DNA of 64,000 bases from Candidatus Omnitrophota bacterium (GTDB taxonomy: Bacteria > Omnitrophota > Gorgyraeia > Gygaellales > Profunditerraquicolaceae), in NCBI GenBank assembly GCA_028717885.1, contig JAQUMX010000006.1, forward strand, positions 206 through 64,205. The letters are read 5' to 3'. This document shows positions 12,047 through 64,000 of this stretch, piece by piece. Under the pieces are notes generated by a model, which searched no databases, was not told the DNA's origin, and saw only the letters and a program-made list of their open reading frames with translations. Position 1 is the stretch's first letter. Each line of letters starts with the position of its first letter. The position numbers and the translations under genes were made by a program.

Positions 12047-12102
12047 GACACCCGGCCTTATCTGTTAGGCCGGTGTTCATTCGTATGAAAGGAGCAACAA
12101 AA
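12047..12102 (+). repeat. Family-3 cassette: GC hairpin plus conserved SD leader (copy 1, before rpsP)
   Basis: ACACCCGGCCT (12048-12058) / AGGCCGGTGT (12067-12076) then TCATTCGTATGAAAGGAG; near-identical cassette at 48455-48513. Confidence 0.7.
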
Positions 12103-20875: not shown

Positions 20876-20948
<73 letters not shown>

Positions 20949-20977: not shown

Positions 20978-21127
20978 ATGCGTGAAACTATAACTTTAGA
21001 ATGTACGGTTTGCAAGAATAGAAATTACACCTGCACCAAGAATAAGAAATTGCATCAGGAGAGGCTGGAAATTTCTAAGTTCTGCCGTTTTTGCCACAAA
21101 CATACTGCGCATAAAGAAATTAAATAG
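20978..21127 (+). CDS. rpmG: 50S ribosomal protein L33 (Cys4 zinc form)
   Basis: 49-aa [27 protein letters not shown]...[15 protein letters not shown], below the track length cut-off; classic position before tRNA-Trp/secE. Confidence 0.9.
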
Positions 21128-21196
21128 GAGCGTCGGTTAATGGCAAACCAACGGTCTCCAAAACCGTGACTGCAGGTTCGAGCCCTGCCGCTCCTG
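21126..21196 (+). tRNA. tRNA-Trp (anticodon CCA)
   Basis: Hand-folded 71-nt cloverleaf: acceptor AGGAGCG/CGCTCCT, D GGTT/AACC, anticodon stem ACGGT/ACCGT with loop CTCCAAA, T stem GCAGG/CCTGC with TTCGAGC; first 2 nt are the last 2 nt of the rpmG TAG. Confidence 0.9.
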
Positions 21197-21225: not shown

Positions 21226-21285
21226 TGACCCATTCGCAAAATTCGCTCAGGGTCATCCCGAGCGAATCAAAAGGACCGAGGGATG
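21226..21285 (+). repeat. Family-2 double-hairpin cassette (copy 1, ends in the secE start codon)
   Basis: TGACCC (21226-21231)/GGGTCA (21250-21255) and CATCCC (21254-21259)/GGGATG (21280-21285); ATG 21283 is the secE start. Confidence 0.65.
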
Positions 21286-21546
21286 AATTTTTTTACGAGT
21301 AATTTAAAAGCTATAATTTTAAGCGTCGTAGTAATCGGCATCGTTCTTTTGGTAGTTAAGAATTACAAGAAGATAAAGCAATTTTTAACCGAAGTGAAAC
21401 AGGAGCTGGAGAAGGTATCCTGGTCAACCCGGGAGGAATTAATCGGTTCAACTGTAGTAGTGATCACCATCACCGCAATCACTGCAGTATTCATCGGAAT
21501 AATCGATCTTTTTCTCTCCAAAATCTTGAGCGTAATGTTTAAGTGA
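21283..21546 (+). CDS. secE: Preprotein translocase subunit SecE (with an extra N-terminal TM)
   Basis: C-terminal half E.KKV.WP(S)..E pattern (ELEKVSWSTREEL) plus TM; position before nusG. Confidence 0.85.
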   Translation: MNFFTSNLKAIILSVVVIGIVLLVVKNYKKIKQFLTEVKQELEKVSWSTREELIGSTVVVITITAITAVFIGIIDLFLSKILSVMFK

Positions 21547-21692
21547 GGACACAAGTTATGGTGCATTATATTAAAAATAATATCAGCGACATAACTTGTA
21601 AGTCCGAACTTATCCTTGCACCAATTGGCGCAAGGATTAATTCGCATAGCAACTTATGTTCACTTACGTTCCATAAGTTGCGTGCTCATTAA
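21543..21692 (+). repeat. Family-1 structured intercistronic element (copy A, secE|nusG)
   Basis: GTGAGGACA...AAGTCCGAACTTATCC core; hairpins 21547-21605, 21612-21637, 21649-21681; embedded 44-codon frame 21558-21692. Confidence 0.75.
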
Positions 21693-22220
21693 ATGAAAAA
21701 CTGGTACGTCGTACATACACAAACCGGCGCGGAAGATAAAGTCAAAACGTTATTGGAAAGCAGGATTTCTGCCCAGGGTTTAGCCGAAACAATCTCGCAG
21801 GTAGTTATTCCCACCGAACAGGTTTCCGAAGTGCGTTCCGGGAAAAAACGTATCTCGCAAAGAAAGTTCTTCCCCGGCTATCTGATCGTAGAAATGGAAT
21901 TGAATGAGCAAACCTACCTTTTAATCAAGGGCACCCCGGGAGTAACCGGCTTTATCGGGTTAGGGAAAAAACCTTTAGCCTTACCGCAAACCGAAGTTGA
22001 TAATATTTTGAAGAGGACCGAAGAGACGCACGCTAAACCAAGCCCCAAAATCGTTTTTGAGAAGGGCGAACAGGTTAGGGTGACTGAAGGTCCTTTTGTT
22101 AATTTTAACGGCACTATCGAAGAAATCCATCCGGAAAAGGGTAAATTAAAGGTCAGTGTTTCCATTTTTGGCAGGTCAACGCCTGTTGAATTGGAATATT
22201 GGCAAGTTGAGAAGGTATAA
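21693..22220 (+). CDS. nusG: Transcription termination/antitermination factor NusG
   Basis: WYVVHT NGN start, FPGY(L/V).VEM, C-terminal KOW ([14 protein letters not shown]). Confidence 0.95.
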
Positions 22221-23322: not shown

Positions 23323-23377
23323 CCCTTAAACAAACTGCTCGTGGGAATGGTGCGCGAGCAAAGCGAGTCGAACCATG
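23320..23377 (+). repeat. Family-2 cassette (copy 2, rplA stop to rplJ start)
   Basis: TGACCC...ATGGTGCGCGAGCAAAGCGAGTCGAACCATG; TGA is the rplA stop, terminal ATG is the rplJ start; 30/33 nt identical to 56265-56297. Confidence 0.7.
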
Positions 23378-23914
23378 AAGAAAATCGGACTTATAGTTAA
23401 GGAAGTTTCGGAAGCCCGTTTAAAGAACAGCCTGAAAGGCTCGAACAGTTTTTTTGTGGTGAAATATTCCGGTTTATCCAGCCCCGATATTACGGCATTG
23501 CGCCTTTCTTTAAAGGGTTCGCAAGCCGACTTTTTTGTGGTAAAGAATGCCGTAGCCAGGCGCGCTTTGAAAAATGCCGGGATGGAAAATGCGGTAAAGT
23601 ATATTGATGGCCCATGCGGGATAATCTTTGCTAAAGATGAGCCGGTAGATGTTTCCAAGGTTCTATATAATTTCCTTAAAGATCATGAAAAGTTCCAACT
23701 GGGCGGCGGATTTTTAAAGGACCAGATTCTGGAAAAGAAGGATATCGAAGCATTGGCAAAACTGCCTTCCAAACAGGCGTTGCGCCAGCAATTAGTCGTA
23801 GCTTTAAATGCCCCGATTTCCAAATTTGTCCGCGCGTTGAATGGTACCTTAAGCAAATTCGTAATTTGCTTAGATCAAATAAAAGAAAAAAAATCAAAAG
23901 AGGGGGGTAAGTAA
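23375..23914 (+). CDS. rplJ: 50S ribosomal protein L10
   Basis: 179-aa ORF in the L10 position with typical L10 pattern (LR..L...G..F.VVKN.(L/V)A.RA). Confidence 0.93.
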
Positions 23915-34789: not shown

Positions 34790-35992
34790 ATGGCTAAAGA
34801 AAAATTTGTGAGGTCCAAGCCACACGTGAACATCGGTACCATCGGGCATATCGACCATGGTAAGACCACGTTGACCGCGGCGATCACGCACGTTTTAGCA
34901 AAATTGGGTAAGGCAACAGCAAGAGAATACGCGGATATCGCAAAAGGCGGAACAGTTAGAGACGAGACAAAGGTCGTAACTATTTCTGTTGCACACGTTG
35001 AGTATGAAACGGATACTCGCCATTACGCGCATATCGACTGCCCAGGCCACGCAGACTATATCAAGAACATGATTACCGGCGCAGCGCAGATGGACGGCGC
35101 TATCCTGGTAGTTTCCGCTGCTGACGGCCCTATGCCTCAGACCAGGGAACATATTCTTTTAGCCAGGCAGGTAAACGTGCCTTCAATGGTAGTATTCTTG
35201 AATAAATGCGACCTCGTTCAGGATAAAGAACTTCTTGATCTGGTAGAGTTAGAGACCAGGGATCTTTTGACAAAATACGGTTATCCGGGAGACAAAACTC
35301 CGATTATCAGAGGTAGCGCTTCTAAAGCAATGGCAGCATCGGATCCGAATAGCGAAGATTGCAAATGTATCATGGAATTAATGAAAGCATGCGATGAGTT
35401 TATTCCATTGCCTGTAAGAGACCTTGATAAGCCTTTATTGATGGCAGTTGAAGACGTCTTCAGCATTGAAGGTAGAGGTACTGTAGGGACCGGAAGGATC
35501 GAACGCGGTAAAGTAAAATTGAATGATACGGTTGAGTTGGTAGGTTTAAGGCCGGAAGTTCATTCTACCGTAGTTACCGGTATCGAAATGTTCCGCAAGC
35601 TCCTCGATGAAGGCCAGGCCGGTGATAACGTCGGTTTGCTTTTAAGAGGCGTTGACAAGAGCTCTATCGAGCGCGGCATGGTTATCGCAGCGCCGAAATC
35701 AATTACTCCTCACACCAAATTCAAAGGCCAAGTTTATATCCTGACCAAAGAAGAAGGTGGAAGGCATACCCCGTTTTTCAAAGGTTACCGCCCGCAGTTC
35801 TATTTTAGGACTACGGATGTTACCGGTTCAGTGGTTCTGCCGCAGGGCGCGGAAATGGTAATGCCCGGAGATAATGTTAATCTGGAAGTAGAATTGATTA
35901 TCCCTATCGCCATGGAAAAAGAATCACGTTTTGCCATCCGCGAAGGCGGGCATACGGTAGGTGCAGGAGTTGTAACGGAGATTATTGCTTAA
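34790..35992 (+). CDS. tuf: Elongation factor Tu
   Basis: [34 protein letters not shown]; SD GGGGAGG. Confidence 0.99.
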
Positions 35993-35993
35993 C

Positions 35994-36293
35994 ATGCAAA
36001 AGATTCGCATCAAACTAAAAGCCTATGACCATCGCCTGCTTGATCAGGCGGTAGCCGAGATCGTGGAAACTGTCCGGCGTACCGGAGCGAAAATTTCCGG
36101 GCCCGTACCGTTGCCCACGAAGCACGAGATTTATACGGTGCTGCGTTCGCCGGTAATCGATAAAAAATCCCGCGAGCAGTTCGAATTGGCGACACACAAG
36201 AGGCTGATTGATATTTTTGAACCTACATCCAAGACGATCGATTCCTTAAGGAAATTAAACCTTCCGGCAGGCGTGGATGTGGAAATTAAATGA
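35994..36293 (+). CDS. rpsJ: 30S ribosomal protein S10
   Basis: [16 protein letters not shown] start; ATG 35994 one nt after the tuf stop (track start 35985 rejected). Confidence 0.95.
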
Positions 36294-36401
36294 GGACATA
36301 ATTTATGGCGCGTAAGCGACATAAATTATAAGTCCGAATTTATCCCGCACAGCTTATATTAAAAGCTGTTGAGTGCGGGAATAACTTGCAAGGAAACTCA
36401 C
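36291..36401 (+). repeat. Family-1 structured intercistronic element (copy B, rpsJ|rplC)
   Basis: ATGAGGACATAATTTATGGCGCGTAAGCGACATAAATTATAAGTCCGAATTTATCCCG; hairpin 36294-36335 with GTAA tetraloop; second hairpin 36344-36379; mini-ORF 36305-36331. Confidence 0.75.
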
Positions 36402-37034
36402 ATGTTAGGTATTTTAGGAAAAAAACTAGGAATGACCCAGGTCTTTACGGAAAACGGAAGCCTTGTTTCCGTGACTGCCATCGAAGCCGGGCCATGCCCT
36501 ATATTAAAGGTAAATGAAAAGAGCCTGCAATTGGGTTTTGAGGCAATCGCAGAAAAGCATTTAAGTAAGCCGGTGCTTGGCTACTTTAAAAAACTGCAGC
36601 TTAATCCCTGCAAGGTGATTCACGAAGTGGTAAAGGACCCTTCCAAGGAATATAAGATTGGCGACCAGGTAAAGGTAGATATTTTTAAAGAAGGCGATTT
36701 CGTCGATGTGAGCGGAACTTCTATTGGTAAGGGTTTTCAGGGCGGGATGAAGCGTTGGCATTGGCATGGCGGGCCGCAAACCCATGGTTCGATGTCGCAC
36801 CGCAGGATTGGTTCTTTGGGGTCAAGTACCACCCCAGGCCGCACCTGGACCGGGCATCATTTACCCGGGCACTTGGGTAATACTCGGGTTACTACTCAGA
36901 ACCTGAAAATAATTAAAGTTGACCTGGAGAATAATATCCTCTTAGTCAAAGGTTCGGTACCGGGAAATAAAAATAATTATTTATTCATCAGGCAGGCGAA
37001 AAAGAAGAAGCCAAAGGCTGCTGCAACTAAATAA
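36402..37034 (+). CDS. rplC: 50S ribosomal protein L3
   Basis: MLGILGKKLGMTQVF is the canonical L3 N-terminus; AAGGAAA SD; track start 36369 lies inside the repeat element. Confidence 0.95.
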   Translation: MLGILGKKLGMTQVFTENGSLVSVTAIEAGPCPILKVNEKSLQLGFEAIAEKHLSKPVLGYFKKLQLNPCKVIHEVVKDPSKEYKIGDQVKVDIFKEGDFVDVSGTSIGKGFQGGMKRWHWHGGPQTHGSMSHRRIGSLGSSTTPGRTWTGHHLPGHLGNTRVTTQNLKIIKVDLENNILLVKGSVPGNKNNYLFIRQAKKKKPKAAATK

Positions 37035-42895: not shown

Positions 42896-43441
42896 ATGTC
42901 TTTAATTGGTAAAAAACCTATTGCAATACCGAGTGGAGTAAAAGTACAGGCAGAAAACGGCCAGCTTATGGTAGAAGGGCCGAAGGGAAAAATTGCGCGC
43001 CCGTTTTCTCACCGTTTAAATTTGGAATTAAAAGAGAATCAGGTTTTTGTGAAGCGTGTAGGCGATTCCAAGCTGGATAAATCCTTGCACGGCCTCTTCC
43101 GCGCTTTGATTGCCAATATGGTTAAGGGTGTAACTGACGGCTACAGCAAAGAATTGGAAATTATAGGCACCGGTTTTAAAGCTCAGATACAGGGGAATAA
43201 ATTGGTCTTGACCGTGGGTTTTTCGCATCCGGTTAATTTCACGATCCCCGAAGGCATTAAGATCGAAGCGCCTAAAGCAACTCACCTGGTGATTAGGGGC
43301 ATTGATAAAGAAAAGGTCGGAGAGATCGCTGCGGAGATCCGCGCGGTTTATCCTCCCGAACCATATAAAGGTAAAGGTATCCGCTATGTCGGCGAATACG
43401 TGAAGAAAAAGATCGGAAAGGCACAAGCAACTACTAAATAA
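42896..43441 (+). CDS. rplF: 50S ribosomal protein L6
   Basis: S.IGK.PI.IP.GV start and EPYKGKGIRY C-terminal block. Confidence 0.96.
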   Translation: MSLIGKKPIAIPSGVKVQAENGQLMVEGPKGKIARPFSHRLNLELKENQVFVKRVGDSKLDKSLHGLFRALIANMVKGVTDGYSKELEIIGTGFKAQIQGNKLVLTVGFSHPVNFTIPEGIKIEAPKATHLVIRGIDKEKVGEIAAEIRAVYPPEPYKGKGIRYVGEYVKKKIGKAQATTK

Positions 43442-43553
43442 GTGAGGACATAATTTATGGAGCGTAAGCGACATAAATTATAAGTCCGAACTTATCCCGA
43501 GTCCAAAGAGATTTTATAGTTGTAAACGAGGGATCTAAAAAGGTCATAGGAAT
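43442..43553 (+). repeat. Family-1 structured intercistronic element (copy C, rplF|rplR)
   Basis: GTGAGGACATAATTTATGGAGCGTAAGCGACATAAATTATAAGTCCGAACTTATCCCG; hairpin 43446-43487 with GTAA tetraloop; mini-ORF 43457-43483. Confidence 0.75.
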
Positions 43554-48029: not shown

Positions 48030-48455
48030 ATGCCAAGAATTTTAGGTGTGGACATCCCGAAGGAAAAAAGAATTGAGATCGCCCTGTGCTATCTTTTCGG
48101 CGTGGGCAGGTCTTTAGCAAACAACATCCTTAAAGAAGCGCAGATTTCTCCCGATAAGCGGGCAAAGGATTTAAGCGAAGAAGAGATTTTGCGCATTACC
48201 AACATCATTCAGAAAGGTTACCGCGTAGAAGGAGATTTACGCCGTGACATTTCGCAGAATATCAAGAGATTAGTCGATATCGGTTCCTGGAGAGGTTCGC
48301 GCCACAAAAAAGGCCTTCCTTGCAGAGGGCAGCGTACGCGTACAAATTCCAGGACACGTAAGGGCCCGCGTAAAGGCGGTATGGCGGTAATCAAGAAAGC
48401 GGATACCGCACCTAAAAAGTCAGCGCCTGCAGCAGCAAAGCCGGCCGGTAAATAA
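48030..48455 (+). CDS. rpsM: 30S ribosomal protein S13 (short Lys/Ala/Pro-rich C-terminal tail)
   Basis: M(P/A)RI.GVD(I)P..KR(I)EIAL.Y(L)(F)G(V)G start. Confidence 0.96.
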
Positions 48456-48513
48456 CACGCGGCCTTAATGGATAGGCCGGTGTGCATTTGTATGCAAGGA
48501 GGAATTAAGTTTT
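48455..48513 (+). repeat. Family-3 cassette: GC hairpin plus conserved SD leader (copy 2, before rpsK)
   Basis: ACACGCGGCCT (48455-48465) / AGGCCGGTGTG (48474-48484) then CATTTGTATGCAAGGAGG; matches 12047-12102. Confidence 0.7.
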
Positions 48514-56240: not shown

Positions 56241-56297
56241 CCTTCCGCAAAACTTTGTTTAGGGTCATGGTGCGCGAGTGAAACGAGTCGAACCATG
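56238..56297 (+). repeat. Family-2 cassette (copy 3, ICDH-like stop to mdh start)
   Basis: TGACCT...AGGGTCATGGTGCGCGAGTGAAACGAGTCGAACCATG; CATGGT (56266-56271)/ACCATG (56292-56297). Confidence 0.7.
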
Positions 56298-57215
56298 AAA
56301 ATTTCTATTATCGGTGCCGGAAATGTCGGCGGAACTGCAGCTATGCGCCTTGCCCAGGAGGGTATAGGCGATATTTTTTTAATTGATATCGCTAAGGGCT
56401 TAGCACAGGGAAAAGCTTTTGATTTGGACGACGCTCGCCCGATTCTAAAACATCATTACCATATTACAGGCACCGAGGATTTCGCAGCAGTAAAAGATTC
56501 GGAGATTGTGGTGGTTACAGCCGGCTTGGCAAGAAAACCCGGAATGACCCGCGAGGACCTTTTAAATAAAAACGCCGCGATCTTAAAAAGTATCTGCCTG
56601 GATTTAAAAAAACTCTCTCCCAAGGCAATCCTTATTATTGTTACTAATCCGCTGGATATTATGACTTACCTGGCATTGAAAGTAACCGGCTTTAAAGCGA
56701 ACCGGGTAATTGGCATGGGAGTCAGCCTTGACGCTGCAAGGTTTGCAAATCTCATTAGCCAGGAATTAAAGGTTTCCAGTGCTGATGTAGAGGCAATGGT
56801 AATCGGCGGCCACGGAGAAGGGATGTTGCCTTTAGCGCGTTTTAGCAATATTAAAGGTGTGGCGTTGGATGAATTTATCGGCGAAGATAAAATTAATGAG
56901 TTAGTGCAGCGTACTTTTGACCGCGGAAAAGAAATTGTTTCATTATTAGGCAGCGGCAGCGCTTTTTATGCTCCTTCTGCGGCAATTGCGCAAATGGTAA
57001 AAATCATTGCCAAGGATGAGAAGCGTACTATCGGCGCCTGCGCCTACTTAAACGGCGAATATGGATTAGAAGACCTCTGTATCGGAGTACCGGTGCGTTT
57101 AGGCAATAATGGCATTGAGGAAATTATTAAATTAGATTTGAATAAACAGGAAACCGAAGCCCTTCTTAAAGCAGCGGATCAAATTAAGGAACAATATAAA
57201 AACTTAACCATCTAA
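56295..57215 (+). CDS. mdh: Malate dehydrogenase (LDH-like family)
   Basis: IIGAGNVGG Rossmann motif; substrate-loop AGLARKPGMTRED has Arg at the position that is Gln in lactate dehydrogenases; catalytic (I)GGHG. Confidence 0.9.
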   Translation: MKISIIGAGNVGGTAAMRLAQEGIGDIFLIDIAKGLAQGKAFDLDDARPILKHHYHITGTEDFAAVKDSEIVVVTAGLARKPGMTREDLLNKNAAILKSICLDLKKLSPKAILIIVTNPLDIMTYLALKVTGFKANRVIGMGVSLDAARFANLISQELKVSSADVEAMVIGGHGEGMLPLARFSNIKGVALDEFIGEDKINELVQRTFDRGKEIVSLLGSGSAFYAPSAAIAQMVKIIAKDEKRTIGACAYLNGEYGLEDLCIGVPVRLGNNGIEEIIKLDLNKQETEALLKAADQIKEQYKNLTI

Positions 57216-59353: not shown

Positions 59354-61333
59354 ATGCCTATTAAAGCTAAGCTTTTTTTATTTTTAATTTTCTTTTCTTT
59401 TTCATCTTTTGCTTTTGCCGACAATCTGATCAAAAATCCGGACATGGAACAAGGGTCCCCTACAGCCTGGACCAGTTCTGTGAACAAAACTGCCAATCGA
59501 GCGCTTTACGCTTCTGACAGCTATCATTCCGCTGCGCGTTCCCTAAAAATCATCAATACGGTTTCCGGTATTTCCAATTGGAAAGGTAATCGCTATACTT
59601 TTAAATCAGGATCTCGGCCCAAAAAAATCTATTATTCCGCCTGGGTAAAAGGAGAGAATATTTCGGTTACAGGCGCGGTTTTTTTAAACCTGGTAGTAAC
59701 CTTTACAGACGGCAGGAGGCAGGTTATTAGTGACTTAAGGTTTCCTTCCGGCACCTATAATTGGACACAGGTGAGTTTAAATAAAACTTTTACCAAGTCG
59801 GTAAAATCCTTCCAGCCCTATTTTTATTTTTCCGGCGGCATCGGTACAGCCTGGTTCGATGACCTATCTATTGGCACGAACGGCTCCAATAATTATGCTT
59901 TGAATCCGAATATGGAGGAAGGCAAGCCCCTTAATTGGGCTGCTTATACTACATCCTCAAATAAAGCGCTTTATGCTGCAGATAATTTTCATTCCGGAGC
60001 GCGTTCTTTGGAGATCATTAATTTATTGCCGCGAGTTTCCTATTGGAAAGGGGATGTTGTTAAGTTTAGTAAGCCATACCCAAAACAATTTAAGGCTTCG
60101 GTTTGGGCAAAAGGCGCAAGCATTTCTGCTAATTCTATAGTGGCAATGTACTTCAGGGTAGTTTTTGATAATAATTCTTCCAAGGCCTTTTACGCTGACC
60201 AAAGATTCCCTTCCGGCACTTTTGATTGGATTGAAAAGCAAGACATTAAAACCTTTACCAGGGGGATAAAATCCATTCAGCCGTGTGTTTATTTTAGCGC
60301 AGGTAGAGGCACAGCCTGGTTCGATGATTTTAGCCTTTCGACACAGATTAATACTAATCCGCAGATTACAAATGTAGTTCCTGAAGATAATTCGGATATC
60401 CTCCTGGGCGCTAATGTCAATATTACTGTTATTGCTACAGATAGCGATAATGATGTATTGGAATACCAATTCTCTATTGCCGGCACAGTTAAGCAGGCGT
60501 GGTCAAGCGCAAATACTTATGCCTGGGTTACTCAAACTTCTGACCTTGGCTTAAACAGCGTTTTATGCGAAGTGCGGGATAACAAAGGAGGCACGGACTC
60601 AAAAACCATTAGCTTACGCGTGCTCAATCCAAGCGTAGAAGAGATCTTGCAGAAAGTAGCCAATAATTATGCTTTAGTCTCTGACTTAACCGCAGATATG
60701 ACCTTAACCTCAACTCTTAACGGCGAGCCTTTTGGACAAACAGATTACTGTAAATATTATTTTAAAGCGCCGAGCAAAGAGAGGACTGATTCTTTCTCTG
60801 ATGCCACACGTTTAACTAAGGTCGAAGCTAATATTATGAATGGCTCTAATATGTATTTGATAGATACAATAAATAAAATAGTACAGCCGGTTGATCTTCT
60901 GAATGAAGCAGGAATCAATAGTGCGCAATTTAGCCAAATGGACTTGTATTATAACCAGAGTAATTTCTTAGATAACCATACGGTTACGAAAAACACAGAA
61001 AAGTCGGATTTAGTCAATTTCGTCGTGACTTTTGACGCCGTTCCTAAAGAGCAGAATAATCTTTACTCGAAATTAGAGTTATATATTGATTATAAGAAAG
61101 GATTATTGAAGAAGTCTTGTTTATATAAGCAGAATACCTCCGGCCAATCAGAATTGCTACAGACTATCGAAACCGTCGAATCTCAGCAGATGCCTAATGG
61201 AGCGTGGGTTGTAAAGAAAATGCAAAAAACTCCAGTTTTAAAATCAGGAAATTTAATCGATACTGCAAGCTACGAGAACCAACAAGTAAATATCGGCTTA
61301 AACGATACAGATTTTGATCCAGAACAACAATAG
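59354..61333 (+). CDS. Secreted multidomain protein: 2 x jelly-roll/CBM-like repeat, Ig-like domain, LolA-like C-terminal domain
   Basis: Signal peptide ...FAFA-DN; two ~155-aa paralogous repeats ending GTAWFDD(L/F)S(I/L); PKD/Ig-like ATDSDNDVLEYQF segment; C-terminal domain pattern resembles lipoprotein-sorting/LolA-like proteins (tentative). Confidence 0.6.
   Translation: MPIKAKLFLFLIFFSFSSFAFADNLIKNPDMEQGSPTAWTSSVNKTANRALYASDSYHSAARSLKIINTVSGISNWKGNRYTFKSGSRPKKIYYSAWVKGENISVTGAVFLNLVVTFTDGRRQVISDLRFPSGTYNWTQVSLNKTFTKSVKSFQPYFYFSGGIGTAWFDDLSIGTNGSNNYALNPNMEEGKPLNWAAYTTSSNKALYAADNFHSGARSLEIINLLPRVSYWKGDVVKFSKPYPKQFKASVWAKGASISANSIVAMYFRVVFDNNSSKAFYADQRFPSGTFDWIEKQDIKTFTRGIKSIQPCVYFSAGRGTAWFDDFSLSTQINTNPQITNVVPEDNSDILLGANVNITVIATDSDNDVLEYQFSIAGTVKQAWSSANTYAWVTQTSDLGLNSVLCEVRDNKGGTDSKTISLRVLNPSVEEILQKVANNYALVSDLTADMTLTSTLNGEPFGQTDYCKYYFKAPSKERTDSFSDATRLTKVEANIMNGSNMYLIDTINKIVQPVDLLNEAGINSAQFSQMDLYYNQSNFLDNHTVTKNTEKSDLVNFVVTFDAVPKEQNNLYSKLELYIDYKKGLLKKSCLYKQNTSGQSELLQTIETVESQQMPNGAWVVKKMQKTPVLKSGNLIDTASYENQQVNIGLNDTDFDPEQQ
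59423..60364 (+). repeat. Intragenic tandem duplication of a ~155-codon domain
   Basis: Residues ~24-176 and ~181-337 align colinearly (NP.ME.G.P..W...., ALYA.D..HS.ARSL.IIN, WKG, RFPSGT(Y/F).W, GTAWFDD). Confidence 0.8.
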
Positions 61334-61348
61334 GGGAAAGGATAAAAT

Positions 61349-61903
61349 ATGAACCGTATTGCATTAAAGGCAAGCTTAATAATAGGTGTAGCTTTTTTTC
61401 TAGGTTTTTATTTGATTTTACCATTAAGGCTTTTTATTCCTTCATATGGAGTTTTAGCATTAGTAGACATAGTTTTTTTTATGGCAAGTGGTCAATTTTA
61501 TATAGGAATAGGTTTATCTTTCTTGGTTGGATTATTTTTCTATTTCTTTTTTAAATATTTAATAATAGGAAATATTGCGAAGAAATATCAATATTGGTTG
61601 TTAGTCTTGATGTCCATTATTGTTTTGATAATTGGATTTTTCGTTTATATTCCGGTCCAAGATTTTATTAGCAAAAGGCAAGTACAAGCAAAAAAAGAAG
61701 GTGTGTGGAAAATTGATACAAATAATGACGGAAAAACCGATAGATGGGCATATTATGATGCTAATGATAAATTAATAAGAGTTGATTATGATACTAATTT
61801 TGACGGAGAGGTTGACATTCGAGAATATTATAAGAATAATAAAATCATTGAGAAAGAAATTGATTCTGATTTTGATGGAACATTCGATAAGATAGAAAAA
61901 TAA
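61349..61903 (+). CDS. Membrane protein with C-terminal triple DxDxDG calcium-binding-like loops
   Basis: ~4 predicted TM segments then DTNNDGKTD, DTNFDGEVD, DSDFDGTFD; [11 protein letters not shown]. Confidence 0.55.
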   Translation: MNRIALKASLIIGVAFFLGFYLILPLRLFIPSYGVLALVDIVFFMASGQFYIGIGLSFLVGLFFYFFFKYLIIGNIAKKYQYWLLVLMSIIVLIIGFFVYIPVQDFISKRQVQAKKEGVWKIDTNNDGKTDRWAYYDANDKLIRVDYDTNFDGEVDIREYYKNNKIIEKEIDSDFDGTFDKIEK

Positions 61904-64000
61904 TGAAAAAACTTATAAAAAAATTCTACCTTATAATTATTAGTTATATAGCTTTGAGTTTATTATTTTTATCATCATGTTTTGCTCAAGTTTCAAAAAA
62001 CTGGAATGATTCAGATGTCTATAGGCCTGCTCCAATTTTATTTTTACATGGTTTTGCTAGCGGGAATCCGCATACTTGGGATCAAGTAACCGCAAGTTTT
62101 CGTGACTATTTTTCGAAATATTACTCAGGTTATGATTCCGATCCTACAGTATTACCGGCTACACATTTTCCATATCTCGAAGTTATAGATTTTGGCCCAG
62201 GACTAGTTAATTGTAATAGTTCAGTAGATACCTATAGAGCCGGAGACCATTATGTTTTAACTGGTCAGAGAAATCCAGGGGATCAGGGGTGGTCCGATAA
62301 ATTGAATTCAGCCATAGAAACTTTAAGACAATATTACCAAAATGCAGACAATTCTTCCCAAAAAGTTATATTAGTCGCTCATTCTATGGGAGGATTGGCT
62401 GCAAGACAATATCTGAAGAATTATGGTTATACAGCCCAAAAAATTGAAAAGGTTATACTGATTGGGACACCTAATTTAGGTTCTCAATGGGCCACCAATG
62501 CCGTTTTTTTGCATAGGAATCGAAGATGGGGGGTTTATATTCCTGCACATGGCTGGCTATCTCCATCTCAAATTGAAAATATGGATAAATACCTAGAACA
62601 AAAAAAATTAATTGATATTGATGGTGATGCAGTTTGGGATATGGATGAAACTGATACAGGTAGCGGATTCATTGATGAGCTTAATGACCATTACCCAAAC
62701 AGCATTGCCCATTTTGTTATAGCTGGAAAACATTTTTCATCTTTTAATGGAGGTGATACGATTGTCTCTTTGGAGAACCAATTAGGTAAAAACGTATTGG
62801 TATTAAAAGATCAGAGAACAATTAATGCTCTTCATTGGGACGAGCCTGCAGCTTCTGTTTCCGGAGACAATCCGCTTCTCAAATTCCTCGATCCTGCTTG
62901 CGAAATTAATATTACCTATCCTAACCCAGATGTTATTACTGAAATTTACGAGCCCTCAACTGACCTTCAGGGGTTAGTCTATAAAGAGTACTTACCCGCT
63001 GACAGTAAGCTCCATATCAAGATTATAAGAACAGATGATAATTCGTCCGTTTTAGATGAATATAGGGTAAATTCAGTTAGACCTACCTTGTCCTGGGTCC
63101 CTAATAATCCTGATTCCCCGGTAGCAGAATTTAATCAGCCGATTACTTTTCCTGGCCCCGGCACTTACAAAATTTCCTGTTCAGTCAAGAATCCTGCTGA
63201 AAATGAATCAGATATAAAAGATGTATTTGTAAAGGTTACTCTTACAACTGACGCCTATGTTATTGTGCATTGCCATAATCCAGAAGGTATAGAAATTAAC
63301 AGTATTGATGGTATGAAGGGAAATGCTTATAATTATAGGGCCAAAATTTTTTGCGATACTATGCCTCTCGGAATTTCTCCGCAATACCCTAGCCAGCACA
63401 ATCAGGCTAAATTAATTACTTCCGGAACGCATACCATTAAGGCAACTTTTAATGGTATGACTAAAGAACAGGTTATTTCAGTTACTCCAAATGAAACTAA
63501 AGTCATAACTTTTGTTTTTGATAGGGCAATTCATGATTTTAAAGACTTTTGGTATCTTTCGCCAACTGGTTCTGCATCAGCAAATGGAGCAGGATCAGGG
63601 ATAGTAGTTGGGGATATGGGGCACCTAATTTTTAGTAAAGCATTCTCTTCACCATTTATAAATATTTCTGGGTCAGTTTATTCGCTTGGTGTAAGTACCG
63701 TAGAGTACGATGTTTCCGGAGAAGGCACAGTAACAGTTAGTACAAATTCATTTAGAATGCAAGGAAGTATGAGCGGGAACATAAACATAAGAGCTGGCCG
63801 TGGTGAAGCTTACGTATATATGGTAACAGAAACAAATAAATACTTTGATATTCCTAATCCTCAGGCAGAAGGTTACGCAACTTGGTTTTATCAACAGGAG
63901 TATAGTGATGGGGTTTATGGGGGAGTTATTGCAAAAGGGGAATGTCATTCAAGCGAAATTGCTTCTGCGAGCGCAAAAGCATATTTAGGCAATCCTTCCT
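61903..64000 (+). CDS. Secreted/lipoprotein alpha/beta-hydrolase (lipase-like), 5' partial, runs off the window
   Basis: Not in the ORF track (no stop in window). I translated frame 1 from ATG 61903 (TAATG overlap) to 63999 with no stop. Signal with LSSC lipobox-like site, HGFASG, nucleophile elbow AHSMGG, IGTPNLGS; ~400 further residues of beta-rich sequence. Confidence 0.75.
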   Translation, partial: MKKLIKKFYLIIISYIALSLLFLSSCFAQVSKNWNDSDVYRPAPILFLHGFASGNPHTWDQVTASFRDYFSKYYSGYDSDPTVLPATHFPYLEVIDFGPGLVNCNSSVDTYRAGDHYVLTGQRNPGDQGWSDKLNSAIETLRQYYQNADNSSQKVILVAHSMGGLAARQYLKNYGYTAQKIEKVILIGTPNLGSQWATNAVFLHRNRRWGVYIPAHGWLSPSQIENMDKYLEQKKLIDIDGDAVWDMDETDTGSGFIDELNDHYPNSIAHFVIAGKHFSSFNGGDTIVSLENQLGKNVLVLKDQRTINALHWDEPAASVSGDNPLLKFLDPACEINITYPNPDVITEIYEPSTDLQGLVYKEYLPADSKLHIKIIRTDDNSSVLDEYRVNSVRPTLSWVPNNPDSPVAEFNQPITFPGPGTYKISCSVKNPAENESDIKDVFVKVTLTTDAYVIVHCHNPEGIEINSIDGMKGNAYNYRAKIFCDTMPLGISPQYPSQHNQAKLITSGTHTIKATFNGMTKEQVISVTPNETKVITFVFDRAIHDFKDFWYLSPTGSASANGAGSGIVVGDMGHLIFSKAFSSPFINISGSVYSLGVSTVEYDVSGEGTVTVSTNSFRMQGSMSGNINIRAGRGEAYVYMVTETNKYFDIPNPQAEGYATWFYQQEYSDGVYGGVIAKGECHSSEIASASAKAYLGNPS

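Follow-up and report, generated by a model that had tools for sequence, protein, structure and literature searches.

A modular palindromic repeat, apparently mobile, at stop/start junctions of Candidatus Omnitrophota operons

Results

Three Copies of a Hairpin Module in the Window

The DNA analyzed here (the window) is a stretch of 64,000 nucleotides (nt) from a Candidatus Omnitrophota bacterium (assembly GCA_028717885.1, contig JAQUMX010000006.1, positions 206 to 64,205), which carries a large array of ribosomal-protein (r-protein) genes. On its + strand a hairpin module of ∼56–73 nt occurs three times, between secE (21283–21546) and nusG (from 21693), between rpsJ (35985–36293) and rplC (from 36402), and between rplF (42896–43441) and rplR (from 43554); the flanking genes are assigned from gene order, and we refer to the copies as A, B, and C. 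We will argue that the module is the first part of a modular, palindromic, nonautonomous repeat that is likely mobile and specific to Candidatus Omnitrophota. An earlier reading made from the letters of the window alone (the sequence-only reading) had found one module at these three junctions, and its description of their sequences holds. On the + strand of the window there are three matches to the 5′ half of the module, TGAGGACAYAAKTTATGG, and three to its 3′ half, GCGACATAAMTTRTAAGTCCGAAYTTATCC, where shuffled sequences predict 0.13 and 0.00, respectively. Over 64 nt, copies B and C share 94% identity, and the stem of copy A departs from theirs by paired, compensatory changes (CAAGTTATG/CATAACTTG against TAATTTATG/CATAAATTA). 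The three gaps have folding z-scores of −8.5 (A), −6.5 (B), and −4.5 (C).

In copy B the first hairpin (HP1) spans 36287–36342 on the + strand. It is a short variant that scores 75.8 bits against our HP1 covariance model and is also supported by its fold and by covariation across the family. The module had been said to begin at or overlap the upstream stop codon, and so it does; its true start lies 4 nt earlier than proposed, at the TAA at 36287. A GGAC/GTCC helix (36294–36297 paired with 36332–36335), a 9- to 10-bp helix, and an apical stem fold as first drawn. An outer 5-bp helix, P0 (TAART with AYTTA, here 36287–36291 with 36338–36342), had been overlooked, and the supposed internal loop of an A opposite TAA is actually two tandem GA/GA 2 × 2 loops plus a 2-nt 3′ bulge, the tandem GA loops following P0. 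The stop codon of rpsJ, TGA at 36291–36293, lies within this hairpin. In the window, the original A-TGA of an ATT-AAA-TGA gene end has given way to the element's R-TGA, and thus the C-terminal Lys of S10 is retained. A second hairpin (HP2), the nested GC-clamped palindrome TCCCGCAC...GTGCGGGA, occupies 36343–36380 on the + strand, as judged by its fold and by the HP2 families seen across genomes. It begins immediately 3′ of the P0 TTA (36340–36342); the second, 3′ TTA found in full-length copies is absent, as is a third hairpin (HP3). What follows is a unique + strand spacer (36381–36404) holding rplC's own Shine–Dalgarno (SD) sequence, AAGGA at 36390–36394, and its ATG at 36402. Within the spacer, AAGGAAACTCAYATG is common to three other loci of our scans (L045, L046, and L047; L numbers denote loci throughout), whose upstream inserts differ.

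Copy C is built in the same way. Its short HP1 (43439–43494, + strand, 79.1 bits, supported by its fold) uses the rplF stop codon, TAA at 43439–43441, as the first strand of P0. The rest of the gap (43495–43553, + strand) consists of an HP2, TCCCGAG...CGAGGGA at ∼43495–43533, and a spacer in which an SD-like AGGA precedes the ATG of rplR (43554).

Copy A, the only full-length copy in the window (21540–21692, + strand), is the more interesting one. Its HP1 (21540–21612, 72.5 bits, supported by its fold) is a long variant with an AT-rich apex and contains both the secE stop codon (TGA, 21544–21546) and an SD-like GAGGA (21545–21549). HP2 is TCCTTGCACCAATTGGCGCAAGGA, recognized by its fold at 21613–21636 with a TTA on either side. 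Then comes a hairpin missing from the earlier description, HP3 (21637–21692), an inverted homologue of HP1 of the form TTAAT-TC-GCA...GTGC-TC-ATTAA, evident from its fold and from pattern matches on the opposite strand; the HP1 model matches the − strand at 21634–21692 with 40.8 bits and gives no + strand match there. Its terminal TAA (21690–21692) abuts the nusG ATG at 21693. A 44-codon open reading frame (ORF), MVHYIKNNISDITCKSELILAPIGARINSHSNLCSLTFHKLRAH (21558–21692, + strand), which the earlier description also lacks, runs through all three hairpins and stops at that terminal TAA. Copies B and C, which have HP1 and HP2 only, have lost HP3 or never had it and are best seen as tolerated structured spacers.

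Architecture of the Full Element

Full-length copies elsewhere share the layout of copy A. HP1 is followed by HP2, which comprises one or more GC-clamped palindromes, and then by HP3, which consists of GGATTAATTCGCAC, an inner hairpin, and GTGCTCATTAA. HP3 is matched by the HP1 model on the opposite strand at 35–65 bits, with no match on the same strand, and it terminates in CTCATTAA, usually 0–2 nt ahead of the next ATG. The right-end TAA is ≤2 nt from that ATG in 27 of 41 full-length copies, and the distances observed (−1, 0, 1, and 2) mirror those of natural stop/start junctions. We write the element ends as RTGAGGAC...GTGCTCAT plus TAA. Since the left end reads TAA-RTGAG-G-AC and the reverse complement of the right end reads TTA-ATGAG-C-AC, terminal inverted repeats are present. 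They are imperfect (TAA-RTGAG-G-AC ... GT-G-CTCAT-TAA), and the G/C difference between the two ends is compensated within each hairpin (GGAC/GTCC against GCAC/GTGC).

Elements measure 112–390 nt and contain no transposase gene. The 112-nt minimum, at L068, is HP1 plus HP3 without HP2; overall, 0 to ∼200 nt of HP2 separate HP1 from the inverted HP3. HP2 sits between two TTA, an arrangement resembling a nested insertion at a central TTAA. The second hairpin of copy B had been considered copy-specific; it belongs instead to families of nested palindromes, several of which are common to different genomes. In L045, a close relative whose L3 protein is 96% identical, the HP1 base and HP2 are as in copy B and the inner hairpin is different. 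Modules are thus exchanged between close relatives. Two further kinds of rearrangement were seen. A GC-rich palindrome resembling CCTGCCTGCCGTCAGGCAGG is nested in the HP1 apex of the rpsH–rplF copy in L004 and of the copy starting at 9798 in L084, where the apex insert is 42 nt long and the ORF of the long variant stays in frame. An alternative 3′ module, AGATTGCTTCG...CTCGCAATGACA, takes the place of HP3 in L002, L020, L022, L033, L036, L037, and L044, sometimes in tandem.

HP1 comes in two forms. Short HP1 has a 4-bp apical stem with a triloop, and long HP1 has an AT-rich apex of ∼27 nt. The GTAA (GNRA) tetraloop proposed as a feature of the module caps only copies B and C of this genome; apices are diverse across the family alignment.

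Distribution and Insertion Sites

A pattern anchored on the hairpin base was scanned exactly against one genome per species and matched 43 loci, 42 of them in ∼24 metagenome-assembled genomes (MAGs) labeled as Omnitrophota or (mislabeled) as members of the Planctomycetota–Verrucomicrobiota–Chlamydiota (PVC) group. The covariance model gives no match at the sole non-PVC locus, L014 (Labilibaculum), which we take as chance. The model recognizes ∼55 HP1 copies in the scanned loci, and further copies occur in orthologous metagenome loci. Density is high: three copies in the 64-kb window, up to five per 8 kb (L004), and at least six in the MNVP01 contigs. A search of IMG/VR returned 0 matches to the element, and we set a viral origin aside.

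The junctions themselves bear on the origin of the copies. A metagenome scan with RplC gave 80 orthologous loci, and we tabulated junctions over 20–60 orthologous loci each. In most genomes the junctions of the secE–rplQ cluster measure −4 to +20 nt, with sporadic expansions of ≥60 nt. HP1 occupies at least 15 different r-protein junctions, in different genomes. At rpsJ–rplC, most relatives have an ATGA overlap or a TAA plus a few nucleotides; the element is present there in the window, L045, L074, L082, L084, L041, and L126, and unrelated repeats are present in L046/47, L054, L058/68, and L088. Because orthologous junctions in relatives are mostly empty, the copies appear to be derived, patchy insertions and not an ancestral leader. 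The rpsS–rplV junction illustrates the point. Empty sites read ...ACA TAA N ATG and filled sites ...ACA TAA[GTGAGG...CTCAT]TAA N ATG, which would mean either TAA duplication or insertion 3′ of TAA. Nearly all full-length copies have TAA on both sides, and this TAA is invariant and paired into the terminal helices.

Copies are not confined to the ribosomal array to which the sequence-only reading had tied them. The 19 of 55 that lie in the secE–rplQ cluster are joined by copies at groES–groEL, gyrB, carA, argB, ndk, pth, and infC–rpmI. All copies are intergenic. Of ∼52 copies that could be evaluated, 44 have a co-oriented ORF whose stop codon is precisely the element's TAA (∼3 in 4) or TGA, and only ∼2 copies (L031 and L027) are antisense to both neighbors.

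Several observations concern other inserts at these junctions. L058 and L068 carry tandem TTAACCAA repeats at rpsJ–rplC, a further case of this junction as an insert hot spot. A GTAG-tagged palindrome, GTAGGGACTGTCCC, lies at rpsJ–rplC or rpsH–rplF in three loci (L046 150–163, L047 3239–3252, and L063 16849–16862) and nowhere in the window; it looks like a classical repetitive extragenic palindrome (REP) family coexisting in the phylum. At rpsH–rplF in L062 a 10-nt spacer, GTGAGGACAT, leads straight into the ATG and is identical to the start of the element over its full length. This spacer may be a deletion footprint, or it may be a natural SD spacer that the 5′ end of the element mimics.

Pairing Constraint on the First Hairpin

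Two alignments of HP1 were analyzed: A1, of 46 copies (MAFFT), and A3, of 85 model-aligned copies, including metagenome copies outside the pattern selection. The A1 consensus is TAA-R-T / GA / GGAC / AT NNN TTAYG / GA / variable stem-loop / GA / CRTAA NNN AT / AA / GTCC / GA / AYTTA / TCC. RNAalifold adds the outer helix P0, formed between AYTTA and the TAA of the stop codon together with the RT after it; the R/Y pair of this helix covaries (GC:30, AU:14 in A1; GC:54, AU:28 in A3). Standard pairs fill 96.4% of cells in A1 and 95.4% in A3. Cells changed on both sides number 143 in A1 vs. 47 in shuffles and 278 in A3 vs. 84. Such changes affect 10 of 22 pairs in A1 and 17 of 22 in A3, the covariation check that the sequence-only reading had proposed; GGAC/GTCC covaries too in A3, and 0 of 500 shuffles reach the observed covariation score in either alignment. 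Because of this covariation, we conclude that the HP1 hairpin is real and under pairing constraint. The positions free to vary are the loop, the "NNN" triplets, the bulge, and the apex.

The kind of pairing is informative. Among 1,810 paired cells, 1,707 (94%) are Watson–Crick, 20 are G:T, and 24 are A:C. Selected RNA helices normally tolerate G:U far better than A:C. Since G:T is no commoner than A:C here, an RNA-specific helix can be set aside, and the data point to a palindrome kept at the DNA level, via hairpin/cruciform recognition or templated correction. The inverted HP3 places its GA/GA loops on the nontranscribed strand, which is likewise a property of a DNA repeat.

Covariation also disposes of the mini-ORF of copy B. 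An 8-codon frame, MARKRHKL, at 36305–36331 (+ strand) within HP1 had been read as a feature of the module. Across short variants the corresponding start is ACG in ∼2/3 of copies (pair state ACG/CGT), and the frame length ranges from 3 to 20 codons. The mini-ORF is not conserved because its ATG is merely the T-A state of a covarying T-A/C-G pair.

Known RNA classes offered no match, in line with the sequence-only reading, which had not recognized the module as an r-protein leader, riboswitch, or ribozyme. A scan of the whole window against Rfam 15 at gathering thresholds reported two tRNAs only, and scans of copy A and of the full-length L042 copy at E ≤ 10 returned only subthreshold hairpin or microRNA-type noise.

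An Open Frame in the Long Variant

The embedded SD and ORF proposed for the module fail in copy B and hold in the long subfamily, which includes copy A. There, GAGGA-N8-ATG lies 15 nt after the upstream stop and opens a frame of 44–80 codons that stays open across the element. The ATG is present in all long-form copies. Its distance to the GAA farther along HP1 is 42, 45, 48, 54, or 90 nt, and 21 of 22 copies keep it divisible by 3, even where a nested palindrome adds 42 nt. Zero in-frame stops occur in 21 of 23 ATG-long HP1 copies, as against one to four stops in each of the other two frames, and long-apex copies with ACG do contain in-frame stops. Between HP1 and the right end, frame 0 remains open in 12 of 17 long copies vs. 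1 of 19 ACG-short copies; for frames 1 and 2 the figure is 1 of 17 each.

The frame also tends to end beside the next gene. Of 18 full-length long copies, 12 have the stop of the frame at −5 to +15 nt from the following ATG, usually as CAT-TAA|ATG or ATGA, and the downstream genes of 10 of these 12 have no SD. Copy A conforms: nusG has no purine-rich SD, unlike most genes of the window operon. Among short full-length copies, ∼5–7 have an SD after the element, and 5 have AGGAGG just before the terminal hairpin. In L125 (9983–10162, GCA_041643025.1), a long variant with a 53-codon ORF lies between groES and groEL, and groEL keeps its own GGAGG after the element.

A profile of 12 of these relay-type peptides retrieved 341 clusters of "hypothetical proteins" of 42–86 aa. 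Their N and C termini, encoded by hairpin arms, are conserved; the middle, encoded by the interchangeable HP2, is free in length and sequence; and the residue at the HP1 bulge is unconstrained (K, M, Q, L, V, R, or T). The simplest reading of these sequences would be that translation itself matters and the peptide sequence does not.

Search for a Mobilizing Enzyme

Nowhere in ∼0.94 Mb of loci did paired element ends enclose a transposase, nor did we find an autonomous copy with these ends. Just one inverted pair of ends is widely spaced, at L027 4558–7921, and we rejected it as an autonomous or composite element; its two oppositely oriented elements, one of them antisense, enclose rnpA–yidC beside parA, in a chromosomal origin neighborhood. 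Low-power searches with phmmer for a Y1 enzyme, using two query sequences (IS608 TnpA and the Escherichia coli REP-associated tyrosine transposase, RAYT), found none in 1,013 and then 3,001 ORFs. Two types of enzyme are candidates. TAA/TTA flanks would fit DDE enzymes of the IS5/PIF-Harbinger type, and structured ends together with pairing of TAA to an internal TTA would fit HUH/Y1 enzymes.

Discussion

Before our work, the hairpin between rpsJ and rplC could be viewed as a structured spacer belonging to the ribosomal array. Our comparison leads to a different view. Copy B (36287–36380, plus spacer to 36401) is probably a short, decayed copy of a phylum-wide mobile repeat, not a dedicated rpsJ/rplC regulator. 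We think it likely that the element is a modular, palindromic, nonautonomous mobile repeat akin to miniature inverted-repeat transposable elements (MITEs) or REP dimers and specific to Candidatus Omnitrophota. The sequence-only reading had allowed that a MITE-like repeat would refute its proposed RNA element, and the distribution is of that kind, with many copies per genome, patchy occurrence at orthologous junctions, inverted repeats, and TAA flanks. Compensatory changes are nevertheless abundant.

The full unit would be TAA / RTGA-GGAC...GTCC-GAAYTTA (HP1) / optional TTA-flanked palindromes (HP2) / TTAATTC-GCAC...GTGC-TCAT (HP3) / TAA. It would insert at a TAA with a 3-bp duplication or, equivalently, 3′ of a TAA. 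In compact genomes a permissive TAA would usually be the stop codon of a tight stop/start junction, so the left TAA, or the adjacent in-element TGA, becomes the stop of the upstream gene. The right TAA would then preserve the original 0- to 2-nt relation to the downstream ATG. At the RNA level, the element is expected to be cotranscribed in the sense direction within operons and to fold into very stable hairpins. In copies B and C, the downstream genes would be translated from their own SD sequences. In copy A, the 44-codon frame would hand ribosomes from the secE stop to the SD-less start of nusG.

This last step suggests a broader idea, which we offer tentatively. The long variant could be a "translationally transparent" mobile element, one that lands on a coupled stop/start junction and supplies an SD, an ATG, an arbitrary open frame, and a stop that re-creates the junction. 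Terminating ribosomes would reinitiate on the element, melt its hairpins, and pass to the SD-less downstream gene. Such a relay would maintain translational coupling and keep the insert translated, guarding against Rho-type polarity. Short variants may do likewise by folding, either with an internal SD before the terminal hairpin or by bringing stop and start together.

Several points weigh against interpretation as a mobile repeat, or against parts of it. First, mobility is deduced from distribution only, and the ∼0.94 Mb of loci yielded neither an enclosed transposase nor an autonomous copy. Second, the module sequence is conserved among genomes whose r-proteins are 45–78% identical, which is unusual for a selfish MITE and could also reflect a function selected in the host or binding of the module by a conserved protein. 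Third, to judge from the conserved asymmetric features and from a sense orientation that is nearly absolute, the transcript, its translation, or orientation-specific insertion also matters. Fourth, empty rpsH–rplF sites have SD spacers of 9–12 nt that are missing from filled sites, so simple stop-codon insertion does not account for every case. TAA duplication is moreover indistinguishable from a TAA that is part of the element, because the flanking TAA forms part of the P0 helix, next to a covarying R/Y pair. Finally, the relay ORF is supported by ∼20 independent copies, the matches in protein databases are biased toward intact ORFs, and both a relay ORF and a visible downstream SD are missing from ∼11 short full-length copies.

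The closest alternative retains the mobile repeat and changes its mode of movement. The element would move as single-stranded DNA by means of an HUH/Y1 enzyme (RAYT-like or IS200/IS605 TnpA-like) and insert 3′ of TAA without duplication. In IS608, a guide sequence pairs with the cleavage site, and the conserved TAA just outside the hairpin foot, which pairs with an internal TTA, is reminiscent of that arrangement. Terminal hairpins with conserved bulges and mismatches would also fit, and orientation-specific insertion 3′ of a stop codon would give the sense bias without selection. The inverted-dimer layout resembles that of REP doublets forming hairpins (REPINs) (PMC3116915, PMC3337134), REP termini can supply stop codons to flanking ORFs (PMC3733652), and the GTAG-tagged palindrome family coexists in related genomes. 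On the other hand, the element itself bears no GTAG or CGTC tag, and HP3 is a true inverted copy of HP1, as expected for terminal inverted repeats. The HP2 units, too, look like TTA-duplicating insertions, and the low-power search of the 3,001 ORFs disclosed no Y1 transposase. We therefore regard this route as possible and somewhat unlikely.

A second alternative is that the element is a host cis-regulatory or processing RNA. HP1 would be the site for a trans-acting factor (an RNase of the III/E/Y type or a ribosomal or other RNA-binding protein) that sets cistron expression ratios or mRNA stability, and selection rather than transposition would maintain the copies. This account draws on the strong sequence conservation of the hairpin base (TGA-GGAC, GTCC-GAAYTTA, TTAYGGAG/CGACRTAA), the two tandem GA loops and 2-nt bulge kept across distant genomes, the sense orientation of nearly all copies, their enrichment in r-protein and highly expressed operons (the 19 of 55 in the secE–rplQ cluster; groES–groEL), and the very negative folding z-scores. 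It is improbable given the patchy occupancy of at least 15 junctions, with most relatives empty at each, and given the copies at unrelated genes. Near-exclusive Watson–Crick pairing is atypical for selected RNA helices, the GA loops of the inverted HP3 fall on the nontranscribed strand, and unrelated palindromes are nested and whole modules swapped. A narrower version, an r-protein leader or autoregulatory site, was rejected on account of the same breadth of junctions, the nonribosomal operons, the empty relatives, and the absence of an Rfam leader match. A SECIS-like "TGA + hairpin" was likewise discarded; in most copies the in-frame stop is the preceding TAA.

A third alternative, that the long variant represents a genuine family of genes for small proteins of ∼45–55 aa (ME.YIK.N..DITY.SELI...RKLCAH) with the palindrome secondary, seems very improbable to us. 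The well-spaced SD, the ATG fixed in all long variants, the frame-preserving indels, the avoidance of in-frame stops, and the 341 clusters produced by gene callers would all be expected of a gene. Yet the conserved terminal peptides coincide with hairpin arms that are constrained as nucleotides, the bulge residue is free, and the middle derives from interchangeable HP2 palindromes of variable length and sequence. No Pfam domain is present, and short variants of the same element lack any ORF. We give almost no credence to an intrinsic terminator, attenuator, or internal promoter partitioning ribosomal operons: some copies have GC-rich HP2 stems and some HP2 types have TTGACA-like hexamers, but no T-run follows the hairpins, the three window copies contain no terminator-like or promoter-like site on the + strand, and the elements separate cistrons that need equimolar expression.

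It is useful to compare the element, interpreted as a mobile repeat, with known systems. The literature on REP dimers, REPINs, bacterial interspersed mosaic elements (BIMEs), and RAYT-associated palindromes describes inverted palindromic units (PMC3116915, PMC3337134, PMC3733652), and REP palindromes carry a conserved GTAG (or CGTC) tetranucleotide at one end (PMC3733652). REP termini can also provide the stop codon of a flanking ORF (PMC3733652). The Omnitrophota element resembles this group in its short imperfect palindromes with conserved mismatches, often as two inverted units around a spacer; in forming mosaics with other small motifs; in lying just downstream of coding regions in transcribed DNA; in termini able to supply a stop codon; and in its long persistence in a bacterial lineage. 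It differs in that its boundary is TAA-RTGA, its units are about twice as long (56–73 nt) with a three-tier stem, and no RAYT was found near the copies in the low-power test. It is also almost always in sense orientation and dense in r-protein operons, and one subfamily has an open, putatively translated frame. With neither GTAG nor CGTC as a tag in its consensus, the element falls outside the definition of a REP.

By comparison, MITEs known from operons include Correia/NEMIS in Neisseria, ERIC/IRU in enterobacteria, and RUP, as well as Tourist-like elements, for which TAA/TTA duplications are generated by IS5/PIF-Harbinger-type transposases. The element shares with MITEs a unit of noncoding size (110–260 bp) with terminal inverted repeats, many copies per genome, predicted cotranscription with flanking genes, and predicted long RNA hairpins, and the short AT sequence at both its ends may be a repeated target like theirs. 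Unlike them, its terminal repeats are imperfect, each being a hairpin with locally compensated differences; its sequence is conserved across a phylum; its insertion sites coincide with stop codons; and the loci scanned hold no cognate insertion sequence with the same ends.

Two further comparisons concern translation. Rickettsia palindromic elements (Ogata et al. 2000) reportedly insert in frame within protein-coding genes of the host, whose products then include them. These, too, are palindromic mobile repeats open in one frame and tolerated in expressed essential genes since they are translated, whereas the Omnitrophota element lies between cistrons and its long variant would form a mini-cistron of its own, with SD, start, and stop. 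R-protein and trp operons provide examples of translational coupling by termination–reinitiation, at stop/start overlaps of the ATGA or TAATG kind. Here, similarly, the frame stops 0–2 nt from, or overlapping, the next start, and the downstream gene lacks an SD of its own; the difference is that the coupling ORF would come from an inserted repeat whose amino-acid sequence is apparently irrelevant. We know of no described precedent for a repeat-supplied coupling ORF. Our full-text literature searches found no paper that combines MITE, translational coupling, and stop codon, and none on intergenic repeats of Omnitrophota. Thus, with no Rfam model and no paper, the element is apparently a mobile palindromic repeat that belongs to no named family and was previously undescribed.

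The presence of such a repeat may be relevant in several ways. First, r-protein operons are among the most compact and conserved regions of bacterial genomes, and throughout a candidate phylum whose members are mostly uncultured and have small genomes, one family has repeatedly colonized them, with as many as five copies in 8 kb. Second, the element accounts for hundreds of annotated "hypothetical proteins" of ∼45 aa, and its recognition would clean up the annotation of Omnitrophota MAGs; the element could also serve as a marker for strain-level variation. Third, its copies amount to a natural experiment on the tolerance of a coupled operon for untranslated structured RNA. Should the relay ORF prove functional, it would represent a new adaptation of mobile DNA to translational coupling and a ready design for insulating or bridging cistrons in synthetic operons. 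A transparent element, if real, would represent a novel strategy by which selfish DNA inhabits the most constrained operons of a genome.

Other Features of the Window

The window contains other repeats that do not belong to this family. A second intercistronic repeat family is represented at 12048–12097 and 48455–48504 by a hairpin, ACACNCGGCC...GGCCGGTGT, followed by AAGGAG, with 82% identity over 50 nt; the second copy begins at the rpsM stop codon, upstream of rpsK. A 33-nt repeat, ATGGTGCGCGAG..CGAGTCGAACCATGAA, occurs at 23347–23379 and 56267–56299 with 91% identity, and its first copy includes the rplJ start codon. In the last 4 kb of the window (60001–64000) the G+C content falls from ∼0.45 to 0.35–0.38, and the edge of this low-G+C end (59731–60327) is marked by two direct repeats, one of 35 nt and one of 81 nt, with a spacing of 465 nt. 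Two tRNA genes (20876–20948 and 21126–21196) lie around rpmG just upstream of secE; the order tRNA–rpmG–secE–nusG is the usual arrangement.

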